IMG/VR virus record: IMGVR_UViG_3300029743_000281
DNA length: 15,168 nucleotides
Direction: 5' to 3' (one strand)
From: a virus
Lineage: Duplodnaviria; Heunggongvirae; Uroviricota; Caudoviricetes
Below the pieces are notes generated by a model. That model searched no databases. It was given only the letters and a program-made list of their open reading frames with translations, and was not told where the DNA came from. Shown here one piece after another: positions 1,246 to 15,168 of this stretch. Position numbers and translations under genes: made by a program. Every line of letters starts with the position of its first letter. Within the stretch, counting starts at the first letter, position 1.

Positions 1246-1613
1246 TTGGGCATCACCTCGCTTTCCGGCAGAGTTACCTGTGGCATATCAGGAATCCTCG
1301 CCCCGATGCCCTGTGGAATGGGTTCACCGGGATTCCAATGGACAAGTGCATCAATGGCAGGCTGGATCTGCTCCGGGCGGTCTACGCAGAACACCGGAAA
1401 GCCCAGTGCTTCAAGCTGCTGCCGGCGCTTGCGCTGCAACAGCCGCATCTGCTTACCGGGGGCTTTCAGCTCCACAAAGGCACACTTACCGCCCAGCAGC
1501 AGGACCAGTCTGTCCGGCACACCGTTCATGCTCTGACTGGTAAATTTAAGAGCCTGCCCTCCGGCGGCTCTCACGGCTTCCACGAACTGGTGCTCGACCT
1601 CACTCTCCCTCAC
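1242..1613 (-). CDS. VRR-NUC domain nuclease (phage Holliday-junction-resolvase-like)
   Basis: RESEVEHQF...GGQALKFTS...GVPDRLVLL...FVELKAPG...LQ is the PD-(D/E)XK VRR-NUC signature. Start moved from the track's 1763 to GTG 1613 (GAGGGG RBS). Confidence 0.9.
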   Translation of the reverse strand: MRESEVEHQFVEAVRAAGGQALKFTSQSMNGVPDRLVLLLGGKCAFVELKAPGKQMRLLQRKRRQQLEALGFPVFCVDRPEQIQPAIDALVHWNPGEPIPQGIGARIPDMPQVTLPESEVMPK

Positions 1614-1806
1614 TCTGCTTCCCCTCCTCTGCCCGCCACACGCCAGTGCGCGGACGTTTCTTCTTTTTCTTTCTGCGTTCCTCCAACAGCACATGACCGA
1701 TGGCGGCATCTGCCGTGGGGTCTGGATAGCTGCGGTTGTGCCGCCTTTCGGGCGGACTTTCATCCTTGTGTTCGACCCAACGAACAGCCAGTGTTTCTTT
1801 TTCCAC
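1600..1806 (-). CDS. Small basic phage hypothetical protein (~68 aa) with a YPDPTA motif
   Basis: 3' part of track ORF 1600..2118. GTG at 1806 lies 6 nt after GAGGTG and fills the gap between DUF932 and VRR-NUC. YxDPTA-type motifs are common in small Firmicutes phage proteins. Confidence 0.65.
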   Translation of the reverse strand: MEKETLAVRWVEHKDESPPERRHNRSYPDPTADAAIGHVLLEERRKKKKKRPRTGVWRAEEGKQSEGE

Positions 1807-1816
1807 CCTACTCACC

Positions 1817-2884
1817 TCACCGGTTGATTTCTTTCCACTGAGCCGGCTCCATGGTGGCGACCTGCCAGCCGATGCCCTCCAATGCCGTAGCCCGGTCATA
1901 CGAGGCAACGTCCTGTGACGCTCTAGTGACTGCATTGGACAAGCCGTACAGGGACAAGTCGCCGCCGACGATGAGGTATTTGAGGATACCCTCCTGCTCA
2001 TCTGCGTTGATGCCGTAACTCTGAGAAGTGAGTTGCACCACATCCTGCACCTTGCCGGTGATGGGGACTGCCATAGACTCCTGCAAACGTCCCACCACCT
2101 GTGCGAACCGTGCCTCATCGATTGCAGCCATTGTGGTATCTCGGAGTTTCAAGAGGAACGCCTTGTCCTCGGCTTCCATCGTTTCGTCCGAATACAGCGT
2201 GAAACTGTCCTCCACCGCCTTTGCCTGACGTCCCACATGATGGCGGCGTTCGCCCATGTCACACACGGTCATGCCGTTCAAGCAGACCAGTCTGTAGATA
2301 AGCGGCTGGATTGACACAGCACCCAGACCCACCTCAGAGTTGGAGATCATCACGCCAGCCTGTACGATGTCGCCCTTGCGGACTTCCATTTCCAGACGAT
2401 GGTTTACCACCTTGAGGTACAGCCGATTTTCCGTCACCTCGCAGGACATAACCTCGTACTGGTCATTGCCTGCAAACAATGGCAGCACCGATGTGGCGAT
2501 TTCCATGTTGTCGATACGGCGGTATCGCTCAGACAACAGCGCACGGGCGACCTGCCCGGAGCCGTAGTCCATAGACCGCACCATGTAGGAGCTGGTCCTG
2601 TCCGCAAACCAAGCGTTCACGTTCTCCGCCAGCAGTTCCGGTTTCTGGCTCTGCATCAGGTCGTAGTACTTGGCCGGGATGCCCAGCGCCGATGCCACCT
2701 GACGGTGGAACAGCGAGGTGGTGCCGAAGGTCATTTGCCGGTCTGTGGTCAGATGGTTCAGCTCGAAGGTGTGCCCATCTTCCCGGAGGCGCATTCCCTG
2801 CGCCGGGCTGATGAAGTCCTGCTTTGCCTTGTTCTGGCGATCCAGTTCTACAAGGACTTCCTGCAAATTTCTGCCTGTTTTCAT
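1817..2884 (-). CDS. DUF932-family phage/plasmid protein
   Basis: 355 aa with an AAAGGA RBS. Motifs ALLSERYRRIDN and GVMISNSEVG...IYRLVCLNGM match the DUF932 pattern. Confidence 0.8.
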   Translation of the reverse strand: MKTGRNLQEVLVELDRQNKAKQDFISPAQGMRLREDGHTFELNHLTTDRQMTFGTTSLFHRQVASALGIPAKYYDLMQSQKPELLAENVNAWFADRTSSYMVRSMDYGSGQVARALLSERYRRIDNMEIATSVLPLFAGNDQYEVMSCEVTENRLYLKVVNHRLEMEVRKGDIVQAGVMISNSEVGLGAVSIQPLIYRLVCLNGMTVCDMGERRHHVGRQAKAVEDSFTLYSDETMEAEDKAFLLKLRDTTMAAIDEARFAQVVGRLQESMAVPITGKVQDVVQLTSQSYGINADEQEGILKYLIVGGDLSLYGLSNAVTRASQDVASYDRATALEGIGWQVATMEPAQWKEINR

Positions 2885-2900
2885 ATGCTTTCCTTTCTAT

Positions 2901-2951
2901 GGCGCATATTTATGCGCCGGCTTATACGCCCGTGTCCTTATGACAAGGGCG
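2901..2951 (-). other. Tandem GC-rich stem-loops immediately upstream of the DUF932 RBS
   Basis: ggcgcata-tt-tatgcgcc (2901-2918) and cgccc-g-tgtc-cttat-gaca-a-gggcg (2927-2951). No U-tract on the minus strand. Confidence 0.55.
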
Positions 2952-2976
2952 CCGTGTTTTGTAGTTCTCAGCTCTC

Positions 2977-3315
2977 TTACAGCTCTCGATGGATCATCTG
3001 GCGGATGATCTTGACCGCTCCCTGCATCCGGGTACGGTTCAGCCGAGTGTCGTGCAGGAGTGTGTCCAAAGCATCCACCTCTTCCCGGATGTCGTTCAGG
3101 ACACCCCGGTAGTGATCTGCCAGTCTCTCGTTCTCCTGTTCCAGACGGTCAAACTCTTTTTCGTAGTCATCGATATCCGCTACATTCGTGTCGATGTACT
3201 CCTCGATCTCACGGGCCAGTTCCTCGCCGGCATAGTCGGACACGGCTTCCAGCAGATCCCTGATGCCAAAAGGTGTCAGGAGCTTTCCGTCCTTCATTTC
3301 AATGGCGTGCGGCAT
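2977..3315 (-). CDS. Hypothetical coiled-coil protein (112 aa)
   Basis: Starts 10 nt after the polymerase stop with a GAGGTG RBS. Acidic heptad-like segment (YEKEFDRLEQENERLADHY). Confidence 0.8.
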   Translation of the reverse strand: MPHAIEMKDGKLLTPFGIRDLLEAVSDYAGEELAREIEEYIDTNVADIDDYEKEFDRLEQENERLADHYRGVLNDIREEVDALDTLLHDTRLNRTRMQGAVKIIRQMIHREL

Positions 3316-3324
3316 CTGGTCACC

Positions 3325-5322
3325 TCAATCTTTAAAGTAGTAGTCGCCCTTATACCCGGCGGCTGCCAGCGGAAGGCCATCGCACCAGTCAGGGTTAGCT
3401 GCCATGAGTCGGCAGATTTCCTCAACTGTGTACTTGCCCTTGGGGGCCTCAATGATGACCTCGTCATGGACGTGCGCCACGATGTTCAAGCCCTCATCCT
3501 CGATCCGAGCCATGGCTTCAGCCAGAATGTCACGGGCGATTGCCTGCGTCGCATTCTCGACCAGCCGACCAGAATAAGTCTCCTGCCGTGCCCACTTGTG
3601 GTTCTGACCCACACCTTCGTAGGTCAGGCTCATGCGTCCGAAGCGATTCGGCTGCTGTTTGGGCACGAGGTAAGCCAGCTTTCGACCGGAAGGCAGCACC
3701 ATCCAGAGAGTTCCAGAAGAAAAGGCAAAACTGATCCTGCCGATATCCTGTCGTCCCCCGGTCTTGAAGGCTTGCATCGCAGCTTTCTCCACGTCCCACC
3801 AGTACTGCACGATCTTGGGGTTGGCTTCACGCCATGAGTCGATGATCTCCGGGAGCTCTTCTTCCTTCAGTCCCATCTGCAAGGCACCCATGCTGATGAG
3901 CGCACCGGAAGAACCGCCGTAGCCACAGGCCAGTGTTGCAATCTTCCCTTTCTGGCGCAGGTCACCGTTGATGCCGTGCTTGACCACCGGGACATGGAAC
4001 ATCTGGGAAGCTGTGGCGCAGTAAAGATCCTCGCCGTTTTTGAAGGCATCCAGCACCCACTGTTCCCCTGCTTCCCACGCAAGCACCCGGGCTTCGATGG
4101 CGGAGAAGTCCGCCACGATGAACTCGCATCCATTCCTCGGAATGAGCATGGTGCGGATGAGCTGGGAAAGGACATCCGGTGTGTTGCCGTAGATGCTCTC
4201 CACCATGTCAAAGCAGCCCATCTTCACAAGCGTTCTTGCCTCATCCAGCGTAGAGATGTGATTCTGCGGCAGATTCTGCAACTGGATGTTCCGGCCGGAG
4301 TAGCGTCCGGTACGGCTTGCGCCGTAGAACTGGAACAGTCCTCTGGCTCTGCCGTCCGGGCAGACACAGCGTTCCGCTGCCTGGTATTTCTTGACGGAGC
4401 TCTTTGCCATTTGAAGCCGGAGCTTCAGCATATCCATTGCCTCGACATCCACGCCGTTCTTGTCCAACTCGCCAATCATCTCAGTGACATTCTTTTTGCC
4501 CAGCGTGTCCATCGAGATACCGCGCTCATCCAGCCAGGTCTTGAGCTGGGACACGGAATTCGGGTTCTCCAGCCCGGTCAACTCATACGCTTTCGTAGTC
4601 ATGGCATCCGACAGGAGCAAATCGCAGGTGATGGCCTGCCGGACCAGCTTCGTGTCGATCCTTACGCCACGGTCGTTGATACGCTCATTCACCCTGTAGT
4701 GATGCCACTCCCGGTCAGGCATCGGGAAGCGTTTCAGACGCTTGTAGATGTCCACCTCTGTGTTAACGTCCTGAATGCAGTAGTACTTGAACTTCGCCCA
4801 ATCTTCCGGCAGATGATGCGGAAGGTTTCGTGTGCGGCCACCGTTGCTTTTGGTCGGCTTGCAGGGCGCAGAAAACAGCTTGATGAGCCGTTTGCCCTCC
4901 TCGTCCTTTTGCTGCGTGGTTCTCAAGACTTCGCCGACGTCTTTCAGTGCCATGGGCAGGGTCAGCGATGCCGCCATGACCATGGTGCAGATCCAGTTGT
5001 TCGGCGACAGGAATGTGCCGAGTTTCAGATACTGGCCGGGATAGTGCTGCTGGAGATAGCGGGAGAAGCTCACACGCTCGAAAGCCGCATTGTGAGCGAT
5101 CAGGGTCACATTGCTGTCCTTGAAATCATCCAGAAGCTCCTGCGGAAAGGAATCACCAGATGCGAGGTCTGCCAGCTTCGTTTCGCCAAAGCCGCTGCCC
5201 TCGTCCGTTGCCCAGGCAATCAGAAGGATCTCGAAGCTGGGGTCGGAAACATAGCGGTACAGACCGCATTTCTTGATGTCTGCCTCACAGTAGGTTTCAA
5301 TGTCGATCAATGTCTCTTTCAA
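3325..5322 (-). CDS. Phage family A DNA polymerase (3'-5' exonuclease plus polymerase, no 5'-3' exonuclease)
   Basis: Exo I IDIETY, Exo II AHNAAFER, Exo III YCIQDV, TGRYSG, motif A ADFSAIEAR, motif B RQKGKIATLACGYG, motif C HVHDE. TTG start with a GAGGTG RBS. Confidence 0.95.
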   Translation of the reverse strand: MKETLIDIETYCEADIKKCGLYRYVSDPSFEILLIAWATDEGSGFGETKLADLASGDSFPQELLDDFKDSNVTLIAHNAAFERVSFSRYLQQHYPGQYLKLGTFLSPNNWICTMVMAASLTLPMALKDVGEVLRTTQQKDEEGKRLIKLFSAPCKPTKSNGGRTRNLPHHLPEDWAKFKYYCIQDVNTEVDIYKRLKRFPMPDREWHHYRVNERINDRGVRIDTKLVRQAITCDLLLSDAMTTKAYELTGLENPNSVSQLKTWLDERGISMDTLGKKNVTEMIGELDKNGVDVEAMDMLKLRLQMAKSSVKKYQAAERCVCPDGRARGLFQFYGASRTGRYSGRNIQLQNLPQNHISTLDEARTLVKMGCFDMVESIYGNTPDVLSQLIRTMLIPRNGCEFIVADFSAIEARVLAWEAGEQWVLDAFKNGEDLYCATASQMFHVPVVKHGINGDLRQKGKIATLACGYGGSSGALISMGALQMGLKEEELPEIIDSWREANPKIVQYWWDVEKAAMQAFKTGGRQDIGRISFAFSSGTLWMVLPSGRKLAYLVPKQQPNRFGRMSLTYEGVGQNHKWARQETYSGRLVENATQAIARDILAEAMARIEDEGLNIVAHVHDEVIIEAPKGKYTVEEICRLMAANPDWCDGLPLAAAGYKGDYYFKD

Positions 5323-5349
5323 AGTTCATCACCTCGTTTTTTTCCATGT

Positions 5350-5377
5350 AAAAAGGAGGGAGCCGAAGCTCCCTCCC
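5350..5377 (-). terminator. Intrinsic terminator between the SSB and polymerase genes
   Basis: Minus strand GGAGGGAGC-UUCG-GCUCCCUCC-UUUUU: a perfect 9-bp stem, a C(UUCG)G tetraloop and a U-tract. Confidence 0.85.
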
Positions 5378-5390
5378 GGTCGATGTGTAC

Positions 5391-6002
5391 TTAGCGCAGG
5401 TAGTCGGGCAGTTCTTCACCGGAGTCGTCGCCGAGGACTTCCTCGTCATCCTCCAGTGCATCGAAGTCTGCATCCGCAGAGGCACGACCAGACAGGCGGT
5501 CGCCATCCTTGACGAACTGGATGTTGCCCAGACCAGCCGCCACGCCACGATTGCCGTTGGCGTTGAAGGCGTAGAAGTTGACGCTGACATTGCAGTAGCA
5601 GCCGGAGTAGACCATCATGGGGTCGGTCACAGGCTGCACATGGCGGTCAACCACCTGCGGTGCGTCCTTGCTGGTCGCGTTCAGGAAGAAATGCTCCTGA
5701 TAGTTTTCATCGTCCGGACGGTCGATGTCACCATCACGCAGGGGCATCTTGAGGTTAGGCGGAATCTTACCGCCCCACTTACGGGTCTTGCCATCCTCCT
5801 TGGCGGCCTCCACAGCTTTGTGGATCGCCAGCAGGGTTTTCTTGTCCGCCTTGGGGATCAGGCAGGAAACGGAATATTTCGCATCACCGCCGTTGATGCT
5901 CTTGGGCTCGAAGATGTTGGCAAAGGAAATGCGGCAAGGGATGACGACCTTGGTCGCGCTCATAGTCTTGTTTGCAGTAGCCATAGATTTGTATTCCTCC
6001 AT
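5391..6002 (-). CDS. DUF2815-family phage single-stranded DNA-binding protein (T7 gp2.5-like)
   Basis: RISFANIFEPKS..KYSVSCLIPK, PLRDGD, YSGCYCNVSVNFYAFN.NGNRGVAAGLGNIQ..KDG, and an acidic C-terminal tail. Canonical position between DUF2800 and the polymerase. Confidence 0.9.
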   Translation of the reverse strand: MEEYKSMATANKTMSATKVVIPCRISFANIFEPKSINGGDAKYSVSCLIPKADKKTLLAIHKAVEAAKEDGKTRKWGGKIPPNLKMPLRDGDIDRPDDENYQEHFFLNATSKDAPQVVDRHVQPVTDPMMVYSGCYCNVSVNFYAFNANGNRGVAAGLGNIQFVKDGDRLSGRASADADFDALEDDEEVLGDDSGEELPDYLR

Positions 6003-6008
6003 TATGTT

Positions 6009-7232
6009 TTATTCGAGTAGTGTAAATTCGTCTGCGGCAGTATCGAGATCAACTGCCGGTCTGGGGTCTGAGTCTGGAACAAGTGCCAGCTTACCGGGCG
6101 GTTTCACGACATATTCACCCAGGACCTCCTGAAATTTCTTCTTTCCCATGAGCTTTTCAAACTCGGTCAAGGAGATCATCTCGGTCTTGTAGATGTCGTT
6201 GTAGCCTGCCTGTGTGGCTGCGGTTGCCACCGCCTTCAGGTCAAGGAACTGCCGCTTGCTGCGGCCCTCCACCACCTTGTAGCCATCCCAGCAGACACCG
6301 TGGTTGATAGCCTCGGAGCTGACATAGGCGAAGATGGCTTCGATCCAGGATTCAATGCGGTTCAACGTGGGAAGCATCTTCTCGATATCCGCCTTGGACA
6401 GAAGTGCCGGGGACTTAAAGGTCGGTGCTGTGGTGTCCGGGTCGTAGGATGCAGTGGCATCCGTTTCTTCCTGCTCATCTGCCAGCACACCGGCATCCAG
6501 ATCAAGGAACTCGGTCTTGACCAGTGCCATTGCTTCAGCAGCACAGGCTTTGCAGGAAGTACGGGCACGACAGAACCGACACCAGTCGCCGGGAACCTGC
6601 TTACCTTTGCCTTCAAAGGCGAGCTTTGCTCTGGGGCGGACATAGGTTTCTGCCCAGTCCAGCAGCTCCTCCACACTGCATTCAAACGTCGAGATGTTTT
6701 CCAGCCGGGGCTGGATGATGGTCATGGACACCTTGGTGATGCTGTACAGATACCCATAGGCGTGGTAAGCACCGAGGGCGTAGAGCATCATCTGTGGGTT
6801 GTGGTCACAGCTGACAAACACGCCTTTTCCGTTTTTGTAGTCCATGACGTATAGGGTTCCGTCTGCGATGATGACACAGTCGCCTGTACCGAATCCCTGC
6901 GGAACCAGATAGCTGTAGTCCAGTCGTTCCTCTACCATGACCAGCGGATGTGGGCAAGTCTCCTTGATCTTCTCCACGGTCGTGATGATGAACTCTGCAT
7001 AGATGTCGGTGTTCGCATCCATCTCCTCGTTATCGAACTCGGAGGTCGGCCGCCTGACTCGCTCATGCAGATACTTGCGGAGCTTGTACTCGCCCAGTGC
7101 ATGGGCGGCGGTTCCCTCCTCGGCATACACCGAGGATTCATTGGGGAAGTTCTGCTCCAGCCGAGCCGATGGCGTACAGTTGAGCCATCTCTTGGAGCTG
7201 GACGCAGAGAGGATCGCGTGAACTTCGGGCAT
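6009..7232 (-). CDS. DUF2800-family Cas4-like PD-(D/E)XK nuclease
   Basis: HAILSASSSKRWLNC, EEGTAAH, GFGTGD..VMDYKNG, QMMLYALG and C-terminal WCRFCRARTSC (1+3 Cys, Fe-S-staple-like). Also KVVEGRSKR and KPPGK. Confidence 0.9.
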   Translation of the reverse strand: MPEVHAILSASSSKRWLNCTPSARLEQNFPNESSVYAEEGTAAHALGEYKLRKYLHERVRRPTSEFDNEEMDANTDIYAEFIITTVEKIKETCPHPLVMVEERLDYSYLVPQGFGTGDCVIIADGTLYVMDYKNGKGVFVSCDHNPQMMLYALGAYHAYGYLYSITKVSMTIIQPRLENISTFECSVEELLDWAETYVRPRAKLAFEGKGKQVPGDWCRFCRARTSCKACAAEAMALVKTEFLDLDAGVLADEQEETDATASYDPDTTAPTFKSPALLSKADIEKMLPTLNRIESWIEAIFAYVSSEAINHGVCWDGYKVVEGRSKRQFLDLKAVATAATQAGYNDIYKTEMISLTEFEKLMGKKKFQEVLGEYVVKPPGKLALVPDSDPRPAVDLDTAADEFTLLE

Positions 7233-7244
7233 GAGACACCTCCG

Positions 7245-7838
7245 TTACAGCTGGGAGATGTCTGCGAGGAATGCCTCGTACTTGGATGCCGGAAGTTCAG
7301 AAAGCTGGCCCACACCGTAAGTCTTCAGCAACTGACCGATTTTCTCGTTGTTGCTGCGCTTCTGCTTGATCTTTGCCACGATGACCGCCGTGATCTCATC
7401 CTTGGAGATAGTCACGGCAGGCTGTTCGGGTTCAGCTTTTTGGCCGGTATCCACATCAAAGGGCAGGTCATCCGCCGGATCAACCGGGAAGTCGGCCAGC
7501 TTCTCCTTTGCCTCATCTGCGGCAGAGTTTTCCTCTGCAGGAGCTTCTTCGGCAGGTTCCTTGGGCTGTTCCTCCACCGCAGGCGGAGTGTCCTCCTGCT
7601 TACGAGGACGTTTTACCGGCTTCTTGCGAGGATGCGGAACGTCCTGCACCTTTGGTGCTGTGTCCACGGGCGGGAGCTTGGCCGGAGGGAGCAGCTTATC
7701 CTCGTCCTCCGCATCCTCAGAAGTGAACTCCAGGAGTTCGATTTGCTCTGCCATCCCCTCGCACATCTGGGTCAGGCCACGGAACACCTCCGTCAGCCCA
7801 TCAACGATCTTCTTGGGACCGGTCAGCATCTCACTCAT
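7245..7838 (-). CDS. Phage protein with an acidic/Pro-rich linker and a conserved C-terminal helical domain, of the type usually found just upstream of DUF2800
   Basis: Start moved to ATG 7838, overlapping the upstream stop; ATG 7829 is an alternative. C-terminus IGQLLKTYGVGQLSELPASKYEAFL is typical of this module. Confidence 0.8.
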   Translation of the reverse strand: MSEMLTGPKKIVDGLTEVFRGLTQMCEGMAEQIELLEFTSEDAEDEDKLLPPAKLPPVDTAPKVQDVPHPRKKPVKRPRKQEDTPPAVEEQPKEPAEEAPAEENSAADEAKEKLADFPVDPADDLPFDVDTGQKAEPEQPAVTISKDEITAVIVAKIKQKRSNNEKIGQLLKTYGVGQLSELPASKYEAFLADISQL

Positions 7839-8136
7839 CCTCGTCCACCTCATCCTCACCGCAGACAGCATCCAGATACTCAGCCTGAGCATCCAGAACC
7901 ATCATGACAGACTGCTTGCACAGGCCGGTCTTTGCGCAGATGGCGGCGATCATGGCCTCGATGTCGATATCCGACTCCTCGTCCTGATCCTCGACACCAT
8001 TGATATAGGTGTTGCTGGTGCTGCGCTCATCCAGATGGATGTGGAGATTCTCGACCTTCAGCATCACCGGGAGAATACGACGCACTTCCGGGGCACTGGT
8101 ATTCTGGCTCTTATCGTTCATCATTGTGTTGCTCAC
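7831..8136 (-). CDS. Hypothetical acidic protein (~100 aa)
   Basis: Overlaps both neighbours, consistent with translational coupling. Start is GTG 8136 or ATG 8124. Confidence 0.7.
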   Translation of the reverse strand: MSNTMMNDKSQNTSAPEVRRILPVMLKVENLHIHLDERSTSNTYINGVEDQDEESDIDIEAMIAAICAKTGLCKQSVMMVLDAQAEYLDAVCGEDEVDEDE

Positions 8137-8644
8137 TTTCCGCAGCCTTGGGCTGCTTGTCCTGCTGACCGTCTGCGGTCATGTTGTACTTTTGCGAAAT
8201 GCTCTGGATGAGCAGCTCCGCCACTCGTCCGGGTTCAGGAAGGGTATGCACCGGCTTGCCCAGTTCTTTCGCCTTGGCGATTTCCTGTGCCATACCATCC
8301 GACACACGCTCACCGAACACCCAGAGTTCGTCTGCCTGCTCCAGCCACGAGAGCGCAAACCGTATCCCGGTGTCCCGCTCCGCTGCCACATCATCCTTGA
8401 GGAAACGTGTGAAATACAGATGTGGTGCCAGCGGCTGGATGCCCATCATGGCGAGGATTCGACAGGCCTTGAGTGCCCTTTCGATATTGGAACGCTGCTC
8501 CTCTGCCTTGTCTGCCACCGATGCCGCCATAGGACGGAACGGAGAGCAGACATAGACTTTCTTAGGAGCGGTGTCACCACCGGGCGGCCGCACCGGAGCC
8601 GAACACTTTAAGGGATTGCTCTGGGAATTCTTGATGTTACTCAT
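8111..8644 (-). CDS. DUF4406/DUF7768-like protein (nucleoside 2-deoxyribosyltransferase-like fold)
   Basis: KVYVCSPF...NIERA...PLAPHLYF..FL.D....ER..G......L...DELWVFG..VSDGM..EI..AKELGKPV. AAGGAGG RBS. Confidence 0.85.
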   Translation of the reverse strand: MSNIKNSQSNPLKCSAPVRPPGGDTAPKKVYVCSPFRPMAASVADKAEEQRSNIERALKACRILAMMGIQPLAPHLYFTRFLKDDVAAERDTGIRFALSWLEQADELWVFGERVSDGMAQEIAKAKELGKPVHTLPEPGRVAELLIQSISQKYNMTADGQQDKQPKAAESEQHNDER

Positions 8645-8726
8645 GGGGTGTAACCTCCTTGGATGTATTCGTGAGAGGAAGTTCTCTCATAATGCTTACT
8701 GAAATTCGGGAAAAGGTACCCTATTT

Positions 8727-9473
8727 TCAAAAACTTTTCTTGAGCTTCTTAATCGCTGCAGTCATGGTTTTGCTTACCACGGGTCTTGCAATCCCCAATT
8801 CTTCTGCAATCTCATACTGGGTCAGCCCTTTATAGAAGTAGAGCTGGATGATTTTCTGCTGACGTTCCGTGAGCTTACCCATAGCGGCATACAGCTTGCG
8901 CAGTTCCTCTTCTGCCAACATTTCAGCATTTTCTTCATCCAAGAAGTCCACCATAACGGCATCCGACCAGTCAGAGCCATCGCAATCCAAACTGGCGGCC
9001 TCATTGATGGCAACCGTCTTGCTGCGGTTGCTCTCCATCCGGCGTTCACCTTCCATGACCAGACGCACTGACCACTCGGCATCCTCGAACACTGCCGCCG
9101 GAACGACCTCGTATGTACCGTCATTGAAGTCGTAGCGGTAGTCGCCGCAGCGATTGATTGCCATGACCGTGTGTGCGCCATCCTCCTCATAGACGGCGTA
9201 ACCATTTTCATAGGCCGTGAGCGTTGCACCACCCACTACGGTTCTAGCGGCAATCACAGGATGCATCTCCATGAGCTGTGCGTACTTCGGCAGCTTCTTT
9301 TCGATAACCGCAGCAACCGTGTTCTTCAACTCACGCAGAGAAATGTGTGCGTTTACTGCCAAGTCCTCGACAGCCTGTGCCACGCTCTCCACTGCCTGCG
9401 TTAACGGCTGGCGGATCTCCATTGCGCCATAGCCACCGTAGATTGCAACTGCTCCGTTCATCATGTTAGTCAT
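8727..9473 (-). CDS. Sigma-70 region-4 HTH protein (phage/ICE sigma-like regulator)
   Basis: C-terminus LTERQQKIIQLYFYKGLTQYEIAEELGIARPVVSK is a sigma70_r4 HTH. Start moved from 9638 to ATG 9473 (GGGGAAAGGA RBS, 7-nt spacer). Confidence 0.85.
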   Translation of the reverse strand: MTNMMNGAVAIYGGYGAMEIRQPLTQAVESVAQAVEDLAVNAHISLRELKNTVAAVIEKKLPKYAQLMEMHPVIAARTVVGGATLTAYENGYAVYEEDGAHTVMAINRCGDYRYDFNDGTYEVVPAAVFEDAEWSVRLVMEGERRMESNRSKTVAINEAASLDCDGSDWSDAVMVDFLDEENAEMLAEEELRKLYAAMGKLTERQQKIIQLYFYKGLTQYEIAEELGIARPVVSKTMTAAIKKLKKSF

Positions 9474-9695
9474 TTTCTTGTCCTTTCCCCTGGACTCTGG
9501 GAGGGAGAAGGATACCGATGACGGAAGCGGAACAGGGCTCACATTCTGAGCTGGGACTGCCTGCAAATGCAAAAAGCCCGATTCCAGAGATGGGAGGTAC
9601 ACCCATAGACCGGCTGTTTCACCTCCAGCAGATGACATCTGCCGGTTTGTAAAACTCCGTTATGGTATCCTTCGCCTTCTCTAGAATCGGGCTTA
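9474..9695 (-). ncRNA. Candidate structured cis-regulatory leader of the sigma-like gene
   Basis: 17-bp stem 9678-9694/9574-9590 with a U-G pair only on the minus strand, followed by UUUUU. Inner hairpin at 9625-9645. Alternative pairing 9664-9673 with 9507-9516. RBS-sequestering hairpin 9503-9512/9481-9490. Confidence 0.65.
9537..9551. promoter_or_regulatory. Operator-like palindrome, copy 1 (GCTCA-cattc-TGAGC)
   Basis: One of three GCTCA-N5-TGAGC sites within 400 bp. Confidence 0.55.
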
Positions 9696-9782
9696 CGATA
9701 TTATTTTTTGTTCTTGGGGCTTGTCCTTTTGGGTTCGTCCCTTGAACTGACTACATGATAGCTGAAGACTAATCAAATCACC

Positions 9783-9799
9783 AGCTCACTAAGTGAGCT
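9783..9799. promoter_or_regulatory. Operator-like palindrome, copy 2 (AGCTCACT-A-AGTGAGCT, perfect)
   Basis: Perfect 8-1-8 dyad just upstream of a minus-strand TATCAT -10-like hexamer. Confidence 0.7.
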
Positions 9800-9905
9800 C
9801 TAAAAAATAGCATGCAAACCATCAATATTCCGTTCTTTTGCACAGTTCAAGGTCATATTTGATAGCTTTACGCCACTGTTTTTCGCTCTTTTTCTACCAT
9901 TTAGA

Positions 9906-9920
9906 GCTCACTTTCTGAGC
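9906..9920. promoter_or_regulatory. Operator-like palindrome, copy 3 (GCTCA-ctttc-TGAGC)
   Basis: Positions 9900-9912 (tttagagctcact) are the exact reverse complement of 9792-9804. Confidence 0.65.
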
Positions 9921-9941
9921 CCTAACCTCAGAAAAAATTTC

Positions 9942-9983
9942 AAAAAAAGAGGCGACCAGACCGTTTTGTGGTCCAATCGCCTC
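9942..9983 (-). terminator. Intrinsic terminator after the XRE gene
   Basis: GAGGCGAUUGGACC-ACAAAAC-GGUCUGGUCGCCUC-UUUUUUU: a 14-bp stem with G-U pairs and a U7 tract, 23 nt after the stop. Confidence 0.85.
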
Positions 9984-10006
9984 ATGGGTATTCTGTTGTA
10001 GGTACT

Positions 10007-10504
10007 TTAGCAGGCAGTTTTGAGTGGGGCGCATCCACAAGCTGCAAGATAGACGTTGACTTGCTCGATACCGTCTTTGTAATGGCCCGTCAGAATCATC
10101 TGATAGACCGTATTCCTTTGATTGTTAAAGTCCAGTGTGATTCCACACATTCTCAATAAATCACTGCTGACCATCGGCGGAAGCCGCAATGCCACCGAAA
10201 TGGCAACGACTTGTTCTGCGCTTGCCTCCTGACCCGCACGAAGCCGCTTCACTGTGGACACAGAGAGTCCGGACTCAGACTCCATCTTCTCTACAGACAT
10301 ATCCCGGTCGTTCATCAGCAGCTTTAGAGCGTCTCCGAACTCAAGTTTTGCAATCATCTTCCGTATTGCCATGGACCACTGAACCTCTGCCATAAACTCA
10401 TCTGGCGCAGCCATCCCCTGCTCAGCAGTATTCTGGCGGCAAACCGAGTTGACATTGACGGATGCCGCTTTGGTCTCGGTATTCTTATGTACAGCGGATG
10501 CCAC
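10007..10504 (-). CDS. XRE-type helix-turn-helix protein (paralog A)
   Basis: FGDALKLLM..RDMSVEKMESESGLSVSTVKRLRAG...VVAISVALRLPP. GTG start with an AAGGAGGTG RBS. Confidence 0.8.
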   Translation of the reverse strand: MASAVHKNTETKAASVNVNSVCRQNTAEQGMAAPDEFMAEVQWSMAIRKMIAKLEFGDALKLLMNDRDMSVEKMESESGLSVSTVKRLRAGQEASAEQVVAISVALRLPPMVSSDLLRMCGITLDFNNQRNTVYQMILTGHYKDGIEQVNVYLAACGCAPLKTAC

Positions 10505-10536
10505 CTCGGTTCACCTCCTTCGCTGAAAATTTTAAT

Positions 10537-10609
10537 AAAAAAAGACCGGAGCAAATTCAGATTTCAAGTTGCTTACGCATTACTTGTTTCTAAATTTACT
10601 CCGGTCTTA
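10537..10609 (-). terminator. Long rod-like hairpin with a GUAA tetraloop and U-tract upstream of XRE paralog A (attenuator or processing site)
   Basis: AAGACCGGAG-U-AAAUU-U-AGA..CAAGU..UGC-GUAA-GCA-ACUUG..UCU-G-AAUUU-G-CUCCGGUCUU-UUUUU. Two U-G pairs exist only on the minus strand. Confidence 0.7.
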
Positions 10610-10936
10610 TGTATTTCCGTTTCCGTACTCATTGACCGGATGTGTATTAGCCAGACATTTTATAGTCTTATCAGCAAGTAGACGCACTTCAACCTTACAG
10701 TAGTGTTTTAGTATTGAATTAAGGACCGTTTAGTTATAACTCCTCAATAATTGTGCGCTGACTGCCTCCAACAATCGCGGCACTCTACTAAAAACCTATG
10801 TAATGTCTCTTGCTGAGACGTCATTCAGAAGGATTCTTTTAACTGAACAACATGACTATCTTTGTCTGGTAATACACCTCCACGTTACAAATTATTATCT
10901 TTTCAATAGAGCCTTTCAGGCTATTATCACATCTAT

Positions 10937-10965
10937 AATATAGCAGCCAAAACTCTATTTGTAAA
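10937..10965 (-). promoter_or_regulatory. Putative sigma-A promoter TTTACA-17-TATATT
   Basis: -35 at 10960-10965, -10 at 10937-10942, 17-nt spacer ending TGC (extended -10). Confidence 0.55.
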
Positions 10966-11046
10966 TAGGAGCAGCCACTTTTCATCGAAGCGACCAGAAA
11001 CAAGCTGGAAAACTGTGTATTCTGCCAATTCCGGTCCTATAAACGC

Positions 11047-11114
11047 AAATAAGCCGGAATAGACTCCTAAAATCCGAAAAATTTTCAGATTTCTTTGAAG
11101 TCTACCCCGGCTTA
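11047..11114 (-). other. Long rod-like RNA hairpin
   Basis: UAAGCCGG-GG-UAGACU-UC..AAUC-U-GAAAA..UUUUC-G-GAUU..GG-AGUCUA-UU-CCGGCUUA-UUU. Four positions pair as G-U only on the minus strand. Confidence 0.65.
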
Positions 11115-11198
11115 CTACGCATTCGAGCAGCACCAAACAGGCAGCAGTTTAGTTTTTGACTGGCTCACACGGTTCTCCGATGAGCCAAGTGTGCTAAT

Positions 11199-11402
11199 TC
11201 ACATCCGCTTCTTCTCATTCTCGTCCTCAAACTTGAGGCAGGGTCCAACGCAGCACTGGGCTGCCAAATCATCTAAGTACTCATAGGCTTGTACCTTTCC
11301 ATTTTTCACATACGCCACCGCTTTACGGCCATTGACCATTGCCCGGATTGCAAGTAGCATCCGTTTACCTTTGGTCGTATAAATGCCATAATCCACACCC
11401 AT
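11199..11402 (-). CDS. Small hypothetical protein (67 aa; may start at the internal MLLAIR)
   Basis: AGGAGG RBS upstream of ATG 11402. Followed by a hairpin at 11161-11187 (tggctca...tgagcca). Confidence 0.55.
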   Translation of the reverse strand: MGVDYGIYTTKGKRMLLAIRAMVNGRKAVAYVKNGKVQAYEYLDDLAAQCCVGPCLKFEDENEKKRM

Positions 11403-11468
11403 GTTTCCCTGCCTCCTATCCCAATTTAGTCTCTTTTAAAGATTGATGCCTCTGTTCCATCAACTCTT

Positions 11469-11600
11469 GAGGCAGAGTCGCTGCCTGACCGCTGCCCTGA
11501 TTGCAGCAAAACGGTCTATCAGAACAGACCCGCCGTCCGGTCGGCAAGCGAGAAAGAGGTGCTAGATCTTCTGCGGGCTAGGGATGAGAAATGGGAATAA
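11469..11600 (+). pseudogene. 5'-truncated remnant of a small zinc-ribbon (rubredoxin-like) protein
   Basis: Hand translation EAESLPDRCPDCSKTVYQNRPAVRSASEKEVLDLLRARDEKWE*. The frame is open only from 11430, with no ATG and no first CxxC pair. A hairpin and T-run follow on the plus strand. Confidence 0.5.
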
Positions 11601-11613
11601 ACCGCAAGTGCAA

Positions 11614-11660
11614 ATGAGCCGTGTGTTCACCTCCTTACCGGAGAAGGACACACGGCTCAT
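11614..11660. repeat. Palindromic element, copy 1 (probable bidirectional terminator)
   Basis: atgagccgtgtgttc...ggacacacggctcat between convergent genes. Shares 14 bp (gagccgtgtgttca) with 12673-12686. Confidence 0.65.
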
Positions 11661-11696
11661 CATTTTTGACTTAGAAGCTCAGGATGCTCGACAATC

Positions 11697-12167
11697 CTAT
11701 GCCGCCACTTGGGACAGTAAATCAGACCCTCTTTTTCTCAAATAGTCGTTCACCTCATCAACCGACCTCATATACATACAGCTAAGAACCATTAAATATG
11801 CTTGCTGCTCTTTGGTCGCAGCCAAGCTAAAACCCGCTTTTGCTATGAGCGCAAACGAAAGCCATGGAGGAAGATGCATAGCAACGCATAGTGCAACCAC
11901 GTTTTTCTCAGAAAAACTTTTAACCTTTCCATTTCTGTAGCGACCGATCGTTGACTCCGACACCTTTGATTCAAAGGCCAGAGCCTCTTGCGTAAATCCG
12001 AAGCGTGTCATCACATATCGTAGTGCTGCCGGGAAGCAAGCAGGCATATTCGCTAACACCTTGCGTTCTTCTTCAGCCTTCTCATTCTCAGACAGCCTTC
12101 CCTCCGGGTCTATAATATGATAGTAGTTTTTGATCTCTGTTTGATTTTTTTCAGCATGCGAGGGCAT
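11697..12167 (-). CDS. XRE-type helix-turn-helix protein (paralog B)
   Basis: FPAALRYVM..FGFTQEALAFESKVSESTIGRYRNG...VVALCVAMHLPP. Start moved to ATG 12167 (GGAGGG RBS). Confidence 0.85.
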   Translation of the reverse strand: MPSHAEKNQTEIKNYYHIIDPEGRLSENEKAEEERKVLANMPACFPAALRYVMTRFGFTQEALAFESKVSESTIGRYRNGKVKSFSEKNVVALCVAMHLPPWLSFALIAKAGFSLAATKEQQAYLMVLSCMYMRSVDEVNDYLRKRGSDLLSQVAA

Positions 12168-12585
12168 CCAAATCCCTCCCACGTCCAAAACTACTCAAGG
12201 TAGCCTCAAACGTGGGAGGAATGGGCATAGCGATGCTCATTGGGTCAAGTGATGTGCTCGCCAGTGTCCGACTGCTGTTTTTTATCCTGGAAAGCCAAAG
12301 TGCGCGCAACTTCGCTGGAATTCTATTGCTTTTCGCCTTTTTCAAGAGCTTAATGTGCTTCCGCATCCGTTCCAACTCTGCAATTCTTTCATAGAGCCAC
12401 TGGGAATGCGAAAAGTCCTCAAGTGCTCTATCACCAGAATCCAACAATTGCTGAATTTCCTTGGTGATTCTGCTATTCATCCGATTCAATGTTGCTTTTG
12501 AAGCCTTCGTGATGGCTTCAACAATCTTATCAAGATTGAACTCGAATTTCTCGCTATGACAAATGATGTACACTTGTACACTCAC
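12151..12585 (-). CDS. Hypothetical basic protein (144 aa), coupled to XRE paralog B
   Basis: GTG start with an AAAGGG RBS-like sequence. Overlaps the next gene by 17 nt and has an upstream extended -10. Confidence 0.6.
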   Translation of the reverse strand: MSVQVYIICHSEKFEFNLDKIVEAITKASKATLNRMNSRITKEIQQLLDSGDRALEDFSHSQWLYERIAELERMRKHIKLLKKAKSNRIPAKLRALWLSRIKNSSRTLASTSLDPMSIAMPIPPTFEATLSSFGRGRDLDALAC

Positions 12586-12622
12586 CTGCCCTTTTCATGT
12601 AGTACGGTAAACCGCCGTTTCT

Positions 12623-12631
12623 ATTATATCA
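12623..12631 (-). promoter_or_regulatory. Extended -10 promoter element TGaTATAAT
   Basis: Perfect TGnTATAAT 38 nt upstream of GTG 12585; no clear -35. Confidence 0.55.
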
Positions 12632-12672
12632 CATTCAGTCTTAAATCCATATAGGATTTCCAATAATAGTAA

Positions 12673-12716
12673 GAGCCGTGTGTTCAAACTCCAACGTAAG
12701 GGTAAGAACACACGGC
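12673..12716. repeat. Palindromic element, copy 2
   Basis: gccgtgtgttc-N20-gaacacacggc with perfect 11-bp arms, 8 nt downstream of the 12725 stop. Confidence 0.65.
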
Positions 12717-12724
12717 ATATTACT

Positions 12725-13072
12725 TTATTTCAACTTTGCAAGGATCTCATCTGCGCTCACACCGCTTGCAAGTAGCTTCTTAACCACACTCTCGGCTTCC
12801 GCCTTCTTAGCAGCTTCAGCAGCCTTCGCATCAGCGGCAGCCTTCTTGGCCTCCAGCTTTGCGATTTCTTTCTCGGTCTGCTTGATCTCTGCCTTCTTCG
12901 GCTTTAGACCTTCACGCAGGGACTTGATGTCGGTTTTCAGTTCTTCGATTTGGGCGACAGTCTTGGAAAGACCTTCTTCGAGCATCACCTTGTCTTTCTG
13001 CAACTTTACAATCTGTGCATCAAGGTCGGTAGATGCGGTAATGCGGTTCTTGCTTCCTTTGGTTCTGGGCAT
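12725..13072 (-). CDS. Lys/Ala-rich coiled-coil protein with an N-terminal AT-hook-like motif (MPRTKGSKN)
   Basis: GGAGGT RBS, its own promoter, a long heptad repeat and a short C-terminal helical hairpin (LLASGVSADEILAKLK). Confidence 0.85.
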   Translation of the reverse strand: MPRTKGSKNRITASTDLDAQIVKLQKDKVMLEEGLSKTVAQIEELKTDIKSLREGLKPKKAEIKQTEKEIAKLEAKKAAADAKAAEAAKKAEAESVVKKLLASGVSADEILAKLK

Positions 13073-13112
13073 AGGATTATACCTCCGATAAGATTATGTA
13101 AGATTTAGGGTT

Positions 13113-13141
13113 AGTATAGCACTGCGGAAATAGGATGACAA
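13113..13141 (-). promoter_or_regulatory. Near-consensus sigma-A promoter TTGTCA-17-(TGc)TATACT
   Basis: -35 at 13136-13141, -10 at 13113-13118, extended -10. Confidence 0.75.
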
Positions 13142-13146
13142 TACAC

Positions 13147-13653
13147 TCATGAAGCAAATGGTATTGTTTTTCCAATATGTCGATAAAGTTCCTCTTCGTG
13201 TACGACCTCTGCCTTTTCATCGAGATTAATTAGTTTAACCCACTGTAAAAGCCCTTTGTCAGTCAGCTTAAATCGAATAATTCCATACCTTTTCTGTGAG
13301 CCACATTGGTTATATAAGGCACACTTACTTCTTACTTCATTTGTCTTTAATTCCTTGCCAGCGGAGTCATTGTATAGTTGAATTACTGCGGTATCACTTG
13401 AAATCTCTGGTTGCCACTTTTGGACACCATAGCTGACCTTTTTTATCACCATGCCTGGAATCAAAGTATCCTCTTGAAATCCAGCATACACTTTAGCAGT
13501 ATTCGAATGATGACGACCAGACATATATTGGGCATCATACAAGTTAGGAAACATATATCGTTCCAGCGCATTGGCTTTCTGAATACACCGGCATTGTTCC
13601 TTCAGGATGTCAATGATTGCATTCTTCTGGTCATCGTTTAAAAGGCTCATCAT
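13147..13653 (-). CDS. Hypothetical protein (168 aa), AT-rich
   Basis: GGAG RBS, 14 nt after the upstream gene's stop. No recognised motif. Confidence 0.75.
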   Translation of the reverse strand: MMSLLNDDQKNAIIDILKEQCRCIQKANALERYMFPNLYDAQYMSGRHHSNTAKVYAGFQEDTLIPGMVIKKVSYGVQKWQPEISSDTAVIQLYNDSAGKELKTNEVRSKCALYNQCGSQKRYGIIRFKLTDKGLLQWVKLINLDEKAEVVHEEELYRHIGKTIPFAS

Positions 13654-13667
13654 CCTACTCCAAAGTT

Positions 13668-14105
13668 TTAATCTTCTTTGGTATCTAATTTAGCACTATA
13701 TATACCTTCATTATGCAGGATCATCGGAACGTCATAAAACGTCAATTCACCCGTGCCCGCTCCATCTGGAATATAGTCTTCAATTCTCTCCAGCGCAAAT
13801 TCACCAATTTTCACTTCACAAGGATAAAAGTAACTTTCATTTACTTTAGAAGCCACACCGTTCAGTTTAGCAGAAAAGAAATTGCTCCCCATCAATTTTT
13901 CGTAATCATCTTGAAGGATAGTGAATTTCCTTATGTAAACGCGCTGCGCACTCCGAGTCAAGCAGTGGTCATCAATAATCTGCTTTAATGCATGTTCCAG
14001 TGCATTATTATCAACTTCAACATCCTCAACTTTAATTACCGCACCAGACTGCAGTGCATCAAATTCACAGGTAAAACAATTAAATTGTTTAATGGATACA
14101 TCCAT
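13668..14105 (-). CDS. Hypothetical acidic protein (~145 aa), AT-rich, directly downstream of the ribozyme
   Basis: Track ORF starts at GTG 14114, but ATG 14105 has AGGTG at 6-nt spacing. No recognised motif. Confidence 0.75.
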   Translation of the reverse strand: MDVSIKQFNCFTCEFDALQSGAVIKVEDVEVDNNALEHALKQIIDDHCLTRSAQRVYIRKFTILQDDYEKLMGSNFFSAKLNGVASKVNESYFYPCEVKIGEFALERIEDYIPDGAGTGELTFYDVPMILHNEGIYSAKLDTKED

Positions 14106-14133
14106 GTTATTCACCTATTTATAAAGTGCCAGC

Positions 14134-14206
14134 CTTTGCATCTTAGCCACATTCCCATGTGTTGCCTACCGCCCACCGCGTAGAGGTGTGCAAAGTTTCG
14201 AGCGGC
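14134..14206 (-). ncRNA. HDV-like self-cleaving ribozyme (Faecalibacterium drz-Fpra type)
   Basis: GCCGCUC(P1)-GAAA-CUUUGCAC(P2)-ACC(P3)-UCUACGC(L3)-GGU(P3)-GGGCGGU(P1)-AG-GCAA-CACAU-GGGA-AUGUG(P4)-GCUAA(J4/2)-GAUGCAAAG(P2). It has the G1-U wobble, a CU/AG P1.1 and the candidate catalytic C at 14146. Confidence 0.9.
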
Positions 14207-14246
14207 AAAGCTGTGAGCATCCGTGGAGGATAACTCTCACAGCCCA

Positions 14247-14275
14247 AATATACACTATATAGGATCTGTTTTCAA
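14247..14275 (-). promoter_or_regulatory. Putative sigma-A promoter TTGAAA-17-TATATT driving the ribozyme-containing leader
   Basis: -35 at 14270-14275, -10 at 14247-14252. Predicted start ~14240-14243, at the base of hairpin 14210-14243. Confidence 0.65.
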
Positions 14276-14349
14276 GGATGACGGAAAAAATTGGACATAT
14301 ATACATCCAAGTGTCCGTGTTAATCATCTATGCTTTAAGGTGATTATAA

Positions 14350-14562
14350 ATGAAGCTTACTTTCAAAAGATTCCGCCATCAAAATTCCGATGATGTCTGG
14401 GAGGACATCCCGGAGAAGCGTTCTCTTGCCCACACAATCCTTGATTTGCTGTTCTTCCCTACATACCGCTTGCCGCGAACCGTGAACACAGTCCGAATCT
14501 ACAATGACCGGAACTGCTTCTCAGTTTGCCCATGTTGAAGGAAAGTCATCGAGTACGTATAC
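14350..14562 (+). pseudogene. Disrupted small zinc-ribbon protein gene
   Basis: AAGGTG RBS and ATG 14350. Reads ...YRLPRTVNTVRIY...SVCPC*RKVIEYVY, which looks like a CPxC knuckle with a Cys-to-TGA change (14536-14538). The second CxxC is absent. Confidence 0.5.
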
Positions 14563-14595
14563 GATTTCTATAACCCCCTAAATATGAGTTTCCGC

Positions 14596-15168
14596 TTAGA
14601 GTCTAAATTTCACATTCAGTAACCCATCTAATCCCTGAAATGCTGCTGTAATTTCATTTGAAAACTCAGTATCTTGCACTATCTCATCATCACATAAGCT
14701 TTCTCTGTGCCCCATATATTTCCGCGCCGCATCATGTATAGCGTCAGTTTTTCTATATTTCTCATTATATACAAATGAACACTCAACTTTTTTAACCTTG
14801 TATTTACGCTTCGTCCTATTCACATAAACCTTTACCGCATCATATAATGTTTTATCTAACTGTGAGGACAAATTTTTTGAAGTGTCTATGTTAGAGTAAA
14901 GTACTTTTCCCTCATCGGTTCTTGCAAGAAATTCAAATCTCTTCCAATCAATGTCGAAGATTATTTGCCCACAAACATGTTTTGGCGCGTCATAAAAGCT
15001 CACAATAATCTGCTGTATAACATCTCGATCAACAATACCTTTCCTCAAATCACTTTCTATTGAAATGCCACATGCTTTTGTAAGTTCATCTAATACTCCG
15101 GCCAGAATATTTAATCGGATTTTGACATTTACTTTGACATCCATCTTAGGCGGTAACAAATCTATCAT
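14596..15168 (-). CDS. Hypothetical protein (at least 190 aa), AT-rich; true start may lie beyond the window or at the internal MDVKV
   Basis: Long open frame in AT-rich DNA; the ATG is at the window edge. Confidence 0.75.
   Translation of the reverse strand: MIDLLPPKMDVKVNVKIRLNILAGVLDELTKACGISIESDLRKGIVDRDVIQQIIVSFYDAPKHVCGQIIFDIDWKRFEFLARTDEGKVLYSNIDTSKNLSSQLDKTLYDAVKVYVNRTKRKYKVKKVECSFVYNEKYRKTDAIHDAARKYMGHRESLCDDEIVQDTEFSNEITAAFQGLDGLLNVKFRL

Follow-up and report, generated by a model that had tools for sequence, protein, structure and literature searches.

The window, by which we mean the whole stretch of 15,168 nt analyzed here, holds an HDV-like self-cleaving ribozyme on its minus strand. 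It is followed, in order, by two orphan genes (145 and 168 aa), a gene whose product starts with MPRTKG, HTH and sigma-region-4 genes, and a phage-type replication module. The features that enter the argument are given below.

14596 to 15168, minus strand: co-oriented upstream ORF of 190 aa, no family (ORF list, profile searches)
14316 to 14562, minus strand: intergenic segment, 79 to 85% identical to loci with different upstream and cargo genes
14247 to 14275, minus strand: sigma-70/sigma-A-type promoter-like site, TTGAAA-17-TATATT (motif scan and recurrence in relatives)
14208 to 14245, minus strand: predicted leader hairpin ending at the cut site (folding and conservation in relatives)
14134 to 14206, minus strand: HDV-like ribozyme, RF02682, drz-Fpra-2 subtype, long P2 with bulge (Rfam and pairing)
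14146, minus strand: predicted catalytic C in J4/2 (C kept in 102 of 103 resolved contexts listed)
14141, minus strand: bulged A in P2, a subtype feature (purine bulge of 1 to 2 nt in 100 of 103 resolved copies listed)
14111 to 14116, minus strand: Shine-Dalgarno-like AGGTGA, 5 nt before the ATG at 14105 (sequence)
13668 to 14105, minus strand: cargo gene 1, 145 aa, no family (19 relatives at 72 to 98% identity)
13147 to 13653, minus strand: cargo gene 2, 168 aa, no family (structure model weakly resembling type II restriction endonucleases)
13113 to 13141, minus strand: promoter-like site TTGTCA-17-TATACT before the MPRTKG flank gene (motif scan)
12725 to 13072, minus strand: conserved 115-aa coiled-coil gene (the MPRTKG gene), which closes the variable slot (downstream in relatives)
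1242 to 9638, minus strand: phage-type replication module (profile matches, named below)

Numbered from G1 (14206) in the minus-strand reading, the ribozyme contains P1, P2, P3, P1.1, and P4, all in order, as a nested double pseudoknot. P1 pairs nt 1 to 7 with 33 to 39 (7 bp) and closes on a G1-U39 wobble (G14206-U14168); J1/2 is GAAA; P2 pairs nt 12 to 19 with 65 and 67 to 73, leaving A66 (14141) bulged; P3 pairs nt 20 to 22 with 30 to 32; L3 spans nt 23 to 29, of which 24 and 25 form P1.1 with 40 and 41; and P4 pairs nt 46 to 50 with 55 to 59 (5 bp) beneath a GGGA loop. J4/2 (nt 60 to 64) holds C61 (14146), the predicted catalytic residue, which we take to be the equivalent of C75 of HDV. 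The original prediction had placed every one of these helices correctly, with one omission in P2, where all pairs listed were right but C19-G65 had been left out; the predicted cut between 14207 and 14206 agrees with G1 at 14206. Searching Rfam with Infernal returned RF02682 (HDV-F-prausnitzii) at 77.3 bits, above the gathering score of 44 (E = 3.5e-13), over model positions 1 to 74 of 74, and this was the sole gathering-level Rfam match within the window. MFE folding of the region was undistinguished (z = -0.62), a method that cannot model the pseudoknot.

The assignment to the F. prausnitzii type was borne out both by this score and by comparison with drz-Fpra-2, which self-cleaves co-transcriptionally in vitro (PMC7668259). 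Compared by eye, the window copy departs from drz-Fpra-2 at only 4 of the first 71 nt (positions 36, 39, 52, and 63; ~94% identity; PMC7668259 supplement). The fold and the bulged A are common to both, and the drz-Fpra-2 construct has a leader hairpin of the same type as that of the window; however, the window copy has the G1-U wobble where drz-Fpra-2 has G-C. Because it lies within 4 of 71 nt of a self-cleaving RNA and scores well as RF02682, the ribozyme is genuine and of a known kind, and it is very likely active. The same closeness means that the ribozyme had been rightly recognized but overstated as a novelty. In addition, the bulged A had been suggested as a possible tuner of the rate, but it is no local tuning feature, since the bulge is subtype-wide and present in drz-Fpra-2 as well.

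Five pattern scans returned at least 158 matches in at least 120 distinct contexts. Because these loci are related to one another, the counts describe the pattern and not independent events. In an alignment of the 43 distinct related sequences listed, the five helices pair in 95.4% of cells, compared to 26.6 to 49.1% when the partners are slid by 1 to 3 columns. Two-sided changes occur at 15 of 25 pairs, in P1, P2, P3, and P4, although the P2 counts are blurred by misalignment of the short subtype described below. P4 pairs at 97.7% while its sequence diverges freely, and the first P1 pair is GC in 37 sequences, GU in 5, and other in 1. J4/2 is absent from every search pattern, so the retention of the catalytic C is free of pattern choice; 17 of the 120 contexts could not be resolved there. 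The two positions after this C vary (92 and 80 of the 103 resolved contexts listed). A few copies look degenerate or broken (L014, L026, L012, and L199 position 7669), having lost the catalytic C, J4/2, or a P2 strand, and still head cargo.

Related loci occur in Faecalibacterium, Gemmiger, Lachnospiraceae, and other gut Firmicutes. Just downstream of the ribozyme lies a same-strand ORF in 104 of the 120 contexts listed, drawn from 55 families and starting mostly 97 to 120 nt from G1. glmM was found in 45 of the 120 contexts listed, upstream in all 45, and the MPRTKG gene is downstream in 43 of the 79 contexts listed with at least 1.4 kb of sequence. Past the end of P2, conservation reaches background level in ~5 nt (116 contexts listed); at the far side, it is mostly <60% upstream of the MPRTKG gene until the RBS of that gene at about -14 (60 regions listed). 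Among cargo clusters seen repeatedly in the contexts listed, 8 of 14 stand behind at least two upstream types, and the upstream type of the window precedes six different cargos in six contexts listed. DNA run X9 includes a contig in which 3115 other letters, in place of 1053, separate 13087 from 14141, and a second contig that matches the cargo of the window, indicating two cargos for the same slot in one sample. The order of the head is fixed in the contexts listed, usually promoter, cut-site hairpin, ribozyme, and RBS. We conclude that the slot consists of fixed flanks around hypervariable cargo. No long repeats marking the slot were found inside the window.

The sharp cassette borders at the ribozyme, the mosaicism, and the small number of broken copies could also be explained by a DNA repeat that anchors recombination or carries a promoter, with cleavage as a neutral relic. 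However, the catalytic C is kept in all but one of the resolved contexts listed while its neighbors vary, and the two-sided changes in four helices, together with P4 pairing that persists despite divergence, speak against a neutral repeat. We consider this explanation very unlikely.

The head begins with the promoter-like site. A scan of the window found 7 such sites where 8.1 were expected, and so it carries no weight by itself; a site with this -35, a 17-nt spacer, and TAnnnT is nonetheless present upstream in 82 of the 134 long-subtype contexts listed. From spacing, the predicted +1 falls near G14240. At the other end of the head, the ATG at 14105 comes 29 nt after the end of P2, and all 13 of the aligned cargo gene 1 proteins, that of the window included, begin at the Met of this ATG. 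The ribozyme had been assigned to a 5′ UTR in a mobile element, which is in keeping with its predicted position in the 5′ leader of a gene in a prophage-like element (see below); the promoter, the leader hairpin, and the hypervariable slot that holds the downstream gene had been overlooked. Contigs from four RNA runs match both sides of the ribozyme, although such contigs show neither ends nor strand and may include DNA; a DNA run searched at the level of raw reads gave 1 read.

Between promoter and cut site lies a hairpin of -18.8 kcal/mol, or -10.3 kcal/mol for the portion downstream of the predicted +1. Its recurrence was assessed in 162 contexts with enough upstream DNA (the scan contexts listed plus loci from genome searches, 24 of 91 and 9 of 151 genomes). 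In 160 of these 162, a stem of 6 bp or longer closes 0 to 4 nt from the cut; such a stem was seen in 18 of 162 at a control site 100 nt upstream and in 270 of 3240 shuffles. The arms fall into several unrelated sequence types. Outside the short subtype, the promoter adjoins the hairpin in 99 of the 143 contexts listed and the promoter test is negative in 44, whereas none of 19 short-subtype copies has a promoter beside it. The -10 ends 0 to 1 nt before the hairpin in 72 of the 80 contexts listed with such a site, so the predicted +1 falls inside the 5′ arm. Compensatory changes after the -10 (n = 82 listed) include the pairs at +4 (GC in 57, AT in 13) and +6 (TA in 54, CG in 17). Both precede the predicted +1, as would be expected of a read-through transcript. 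Most simply, the entire hairpin would matter in RNA that reads through from upstream, and the local promoter would make a second transcript with a short leader, both giving the same cleaved product. Two other roles for the hairpin were considered. It was not called as an intrinsic terminator, having only three U after it and, in the short subtype, no U run; a DNA operator is disfavored because the distance from -10 to cut ranges from 26 to 58 nt through loop length.

A possible source of read-through RNA is the 190-aa upstream ORF, for which no relatives were found in viral contigs. Beyond 15168, 525 nt of the related locus L068 can be compared, and there another co-oriented ORF (L068:1-510) precedes the homologue of the 190-aa ORF. 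It has no Pfam or PADLOC match at 1e-4 but presumably resembles the C-terminal part of an AAA-type ATPase, and its position suggests another cargo unit upstream of the window edge. In the intergenic segment, a short antisense frame (14350 to 14538, plus strand), a gene or a remnant, recurs in L068, L199, and L017, and run X9 has a 13-nt insertion behind 14350.

These observations raise the question of which side of the cut the ribozyme serves. Cleavage could stand in for a terminator, so that the upstream mRNA (of surface-polysaccharide genes, glmM, or a preceding cargo) ends in a protective 3′ hairpin; the effect on the downstream cargo would then be secondary. The hairpin in nearly every context listed, including the 19 promoterless short-subtype copies, the covarying outer pairs upstream of the predicted +1, the position of glmM upstream in 45 of 120 contexts listed, and the finding of no minus-strand terminator-like site in 12000 to 15168 are consistent with such a job. 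It sits poorly, however, with the promoter adjoining most hairpins outside the short subtype, which would leave local transcripts a leader of just ~20 to 35 nt ahead of the cut, and with an RBS and start at a nearly fixed distance downstream. On this evidence, an upstream role as the main function is unlikely, though it deserves consideration.

Faecalibacterium-genus loci often carry 2 to 4 co-oriented copies, and the copies fall into two subtypes. The short subtype lies directly after the stop of the preceding gene and ~105 to 111 nt before glmM (12 loci), often 1.6 to 3 kb upstream of a long-subtype copy. Its P2 bulge is mostly absent, and it agrees with the published RF02682-type ribozyme upstream of glmM (review PMC6765202). 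The long subtype, that of the window, stands at the head of the variable slot, behind a glmM, VanZ-like, or nucleotidyl-transferase-like gene. The ribozyme upstream of glmM, which we take to be drz-Fpra-1, belongs to the same Rfam family, is found at the same loci, and has a cut-site hairpin too; it differs in its shorter J1/2-P2, mostly bulge-free, and in the mostly fixed biosynthetic gene downstream. Where drz-Fpra-1 stands ~106 nt before glmM, the window copy instead precedes the 145-aa orphan gene. In L220, L227, and L229 (genomes G109 and G176), the short subtype is followed by sortase, phosphodiester glycosidase, and other genes instead of glmM, and it may therefore punctuate cell-surface operons more widely. 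In the 77-kb viral-classed IMG/VR record G246 (L242-L243), a long polysaccharide biosynthesis cluster lies directly upstream of two ribozymes.

The link of RF02682 to glmM and polysaccharide loci raises the idea that cleavage is a metabolite-tuned switch of hexosamine and cell-surface metabolism. A metabolite switch is proposed for the glmM-upstream ribozyme in the accessible text of a review, which cites a title on allosteric modulation by glucosamine 6-phosphate (PMC6765202). Yet the glmM-leader arrangement is that of the short subtype, while the subtype of the window precedes 55 unrelated families and has glmM upstream in all 45 contexts listed that carry it. For the window copy, we regard a metabolite switch as the least probable of the explanations considered.

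Both cargo genes of the window are orphans. Cargo gene 1 has no Pfam, PHROGs, or PADLOC match, no true relatives in species genomes or viral contigs (two weak unrelated rows), none in the atlas (0), and no viral fold match at E <= 0.001. Its model is mostly beta (pLDDT 67.7) and weakly resembles tail-tube proteins of phages and split-barrel proteins (best Z 6.7, rmsd 4.7; Foldseek E 0.067). The model of cargo gene 2 (pLDDT 84.8) is closest to R.SwaI (Z 6.1, rmsd 3.7, 125 aligned), followed by an unrelated protein (5.4), NaeI (5.3), and BcnI (5.3); Foldseek returned 0 matches at E <= 0.001, the atlas matches are <0.9, and there is no credible Pfam match. Both top scores (Z 6.7 and 6.1) are no higher than common folds can reach by chance, and a tail-tube or split-barrel-like fold for cargo gene 1 is a lead only. 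A homologue of cargo gene 2 (46%) stands behind another ribozyme copy in L019/L247. Sites like the TTGTCA-17-TATACT before the MPRTKG gene are visible by eye in part of the 60 related upstream regions listed. The MPRTKG gene itself has no specific family and occurs in several copies per Faecalibacterium-genus genome (G019, G024, and G026), and it may point to other variable slots that lack a ribozyme.

For the cargo of relatives, representatives of 53 of the 55 families were searched (L002 and L113 were omitted for doubtful or cut frames). A Pfam match was found in 23 of 53 and none in 30 of 53 of the families listed. Among the matched types are ApeA-HEPN, YaaC, two TIR types, PIN, Panacea, two HNH, Mrr, FRG, RES, PRTase-CE, and four ABC-type ATPases; just one of the matches is to a metabolic family. 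PADLOC matches at E <= 1e-3 were found for 13/53 cargo representatives and 13/90 control ORFs (P = 0.18). Below 1e-7, they were more frequent in cargo (11/53 versus 7/90; P = 0.035), and P fell to 0.004 once generic HTH control matches were dropped. The control set comprises 90 of 246 ORF families and may hold spurious or neighboring variable-region ORFs; the two largest cargo families (67 to 68 aa) are possibly spurious frames. Thus, the defense enrichment of the cargo is modest and threshold-dependent. The provirus G247 carries three ribozyme copies in ~4.5 kb, which head an SpbK-like TIR gene, a 307-aa and 170-aa pair that includes the homologue of the 168-aa gene of the window, and KwaA-KwaB plus a 380-aa gene (copies and genes together, L247:3928-11580). 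KwaA-KwaB is a complete Kiwa pair directly behind one of these copies.

Downstream of the slot, the replication module encodes a sigma-70 region-4 protein, DUF7768, a DUF2800 exonuclease, SSB, family A DNA polymerase, DUF932, and a VRR-NUC-like nuclease. The IMG/VR records G246 and G250 are 89 to 90% identical in DNA to this module, and G248, which covers most of 7788 to 13142 at 85 to 90%, encodes terminase, portal, tape measure, holin, endolysin, and integrases. Given these relatives of the replication module and the phage genes of G248, the window reads as the accessory end of a prophage-like element. A search of annotated phages returned one record, itself unannotated, and a search of plasmids returned none. 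Two similar HTH genes (11697 to 12188 and 10007 to 10504, minus strand) match only the C-terminal ~130 of 626 positions of phrog_4031 and may be fragments or a duplicated repressor pair. Inverted repeats of 20 to 21 nt (86 to 90% complementary; 11614 to 11660, 10542 to 10608, 9784 to 9920, and 9574 to 9694) sit between the HTH genes and the sigma-region-4 gene and could be operators or terminators; 11616 and 12673 share an exact repeat of 14 nt.

Together, these data place a drz-Fpra-2-subtype ribozyme as the constant first element of an exchangeable gene slot in a prophage-like element, and they make it probable, on balance, that this ribozyme cuts itself at 14207/14206, keeping the 5′ end of the cargo mRNA constant whatever lies upstream. 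RNA from the local promoter or from upstream read-through would fold and cleave during transcription. The downstream product would bear a 5′-OH and the 73-nt pseudoknot, 29 nt before the start codon; such a uniform end would uncouple cargo translation and decay from the upstream operon, as RiboJ does. The upstream product would end in the conserved hairpin with a cyclic phosphate, protecting that 3′ end, and the hairpin may also prevent leader and ribozyme from mispairing. Cassette exchange probably uses the MPRTKG gene and the conserved DNA of the ribozyme as homologous crossover points. We favor a stabilizing, constitutive role for cleavage, the up or down direction of the effect on cargo mRNA being the inferred side of the proposal.

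A 5′-OH end need not stabilize, since cleavage of the glmS ribozyme leads to mRNA degradation in Firmicutes (review PMC6765202). With this Gram-positive precedent, the ribozyme could be a brake, its 5′-OH product degraded by a 5′ exonuclease so that toxic defense cargo is kept low, until slower cleavage or a phage-borne signal raises expression. Many cargos are of nuclease, TIR, or ATPase types, as a brake would suggest, and pseudoknot-free folding of the short predicted transcript gives 3.0 expected cross-pairs between leader and ribozyme, compared to 0.2 with the whole hairpin. This mispairing, however, vanishes in just one folded construct, and the probability of P1 is low even for the cleaved product. 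Moreover, the short subtype precedes glmM, a biosynthetic gene, in its 12 loci, and a G1 paired within a compact pseudoknot should hinder an exonuclease. A brake is accordingly doubtful, and we retain the constitutive, stabilizing 5′-end function as the preferred reading.

More tentatively, and with less than even confidence, ribozymes of the drz-Fpra-2 type may be natural insulator modules (promoter, cut-site hairpin, and HDV-like ribozyme) that head a large, mostly uncharacterized pool of exchangeable anti-phage cassettes in the temperate elements and surface-polysaccharide loci of gut Firmicutes, fixing the 5′ end of incoming genes and supplying crossover homology. If so, RF02682 would be a search handle for new defense genes, and the pair of tail-tube-like and nuclease-like genes in the window would be one candidate defense unit. 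Since the slot holds dozens of unrelated genes, over half without Pfam matches and some in known defense systems, it supplies candidate anti-phage genes, ready for follow-up, from little-studied gut Clostridia. The ribozyme itself is not new. Most small self-cleaving ribozymes of bacteria have no assigned job (review PMC6765202), and drz-Fpra-2 is treated as an in vitro model, with no genomic role stated in the accessible text (PMC7668259). The context gives this known, in vitro-active kind a testable job, apart from the glmM-leader subtype. We could not find in print that this ribozyme has been described at the constant start of a variable, often defense-like slot; the primary drz-Fpra papers lay outside the literature search and may mention the arrangement, so this absence carries little weight.

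By every feature checked, the window copy is a member of RF02682 and is neither a theta ribozyme, a retroelement leader, nor a copy in the glmM-leader arrangement. The 5′ ribozymes of retroelements (R2/RTE type) precede a reverse transcriptase ORF, whereas the window copy has none downstream. No reverse transcriptase match was found among the 17 window ORFs or the 53 cargo representatives, and there are 0 tRNA genes in the window, upholding the original prediction that the ribozyme is tied to neither a tRNA nor a retroelement. Theta ribozymes share the HDV-like fold and occur in gut phages; as described in the accessible text, they lack P4 and follow tRNAs (PMC10879173), while the window copy has a 5-bp P4 and no tRNA. 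A close architectural parallel is with the clustered hammerheads that flank single variable genes or short blocks in prophages and are proposed to divide long transcripts into mRNAs the size of a gene (Perreault et al. 2011, PMC3088659). There, several co-oriented self-cleaving RNAs stand beside changing genes, and relatives of the window do likewise; the window itself holds one copy, with its edge 962 nt upstream of it. Unlike those hammerheads, as far as the accessible text describes them, the present ribozymes are of the HDV-like class, have a cut-site hairpin and usually a promoter for each unit, and head a slot with a fixed far border and defense-leaning cargo. The P2/P4-like prophage defense hotspots (PMC9122126, 10.1101/2021.01.21.427644) likewise place variable, defense-rich cargo at a fixed site in a temperate element, but are described as bordered by protein genes, whereas one border here is a ribozyme; the literature search returned no paper that combines ribozymes with such hotspots. 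As a working analogy only, RiboJ is a self-cleaving RNA between promoter and RBS that standardizes the 5′ end and raises mRNA about twofold in E. coli (PMC6206723); RiboJ is synthetic and was tested in E. coli, and insulation and stabilization at the present locus are proposed by analogy with it.
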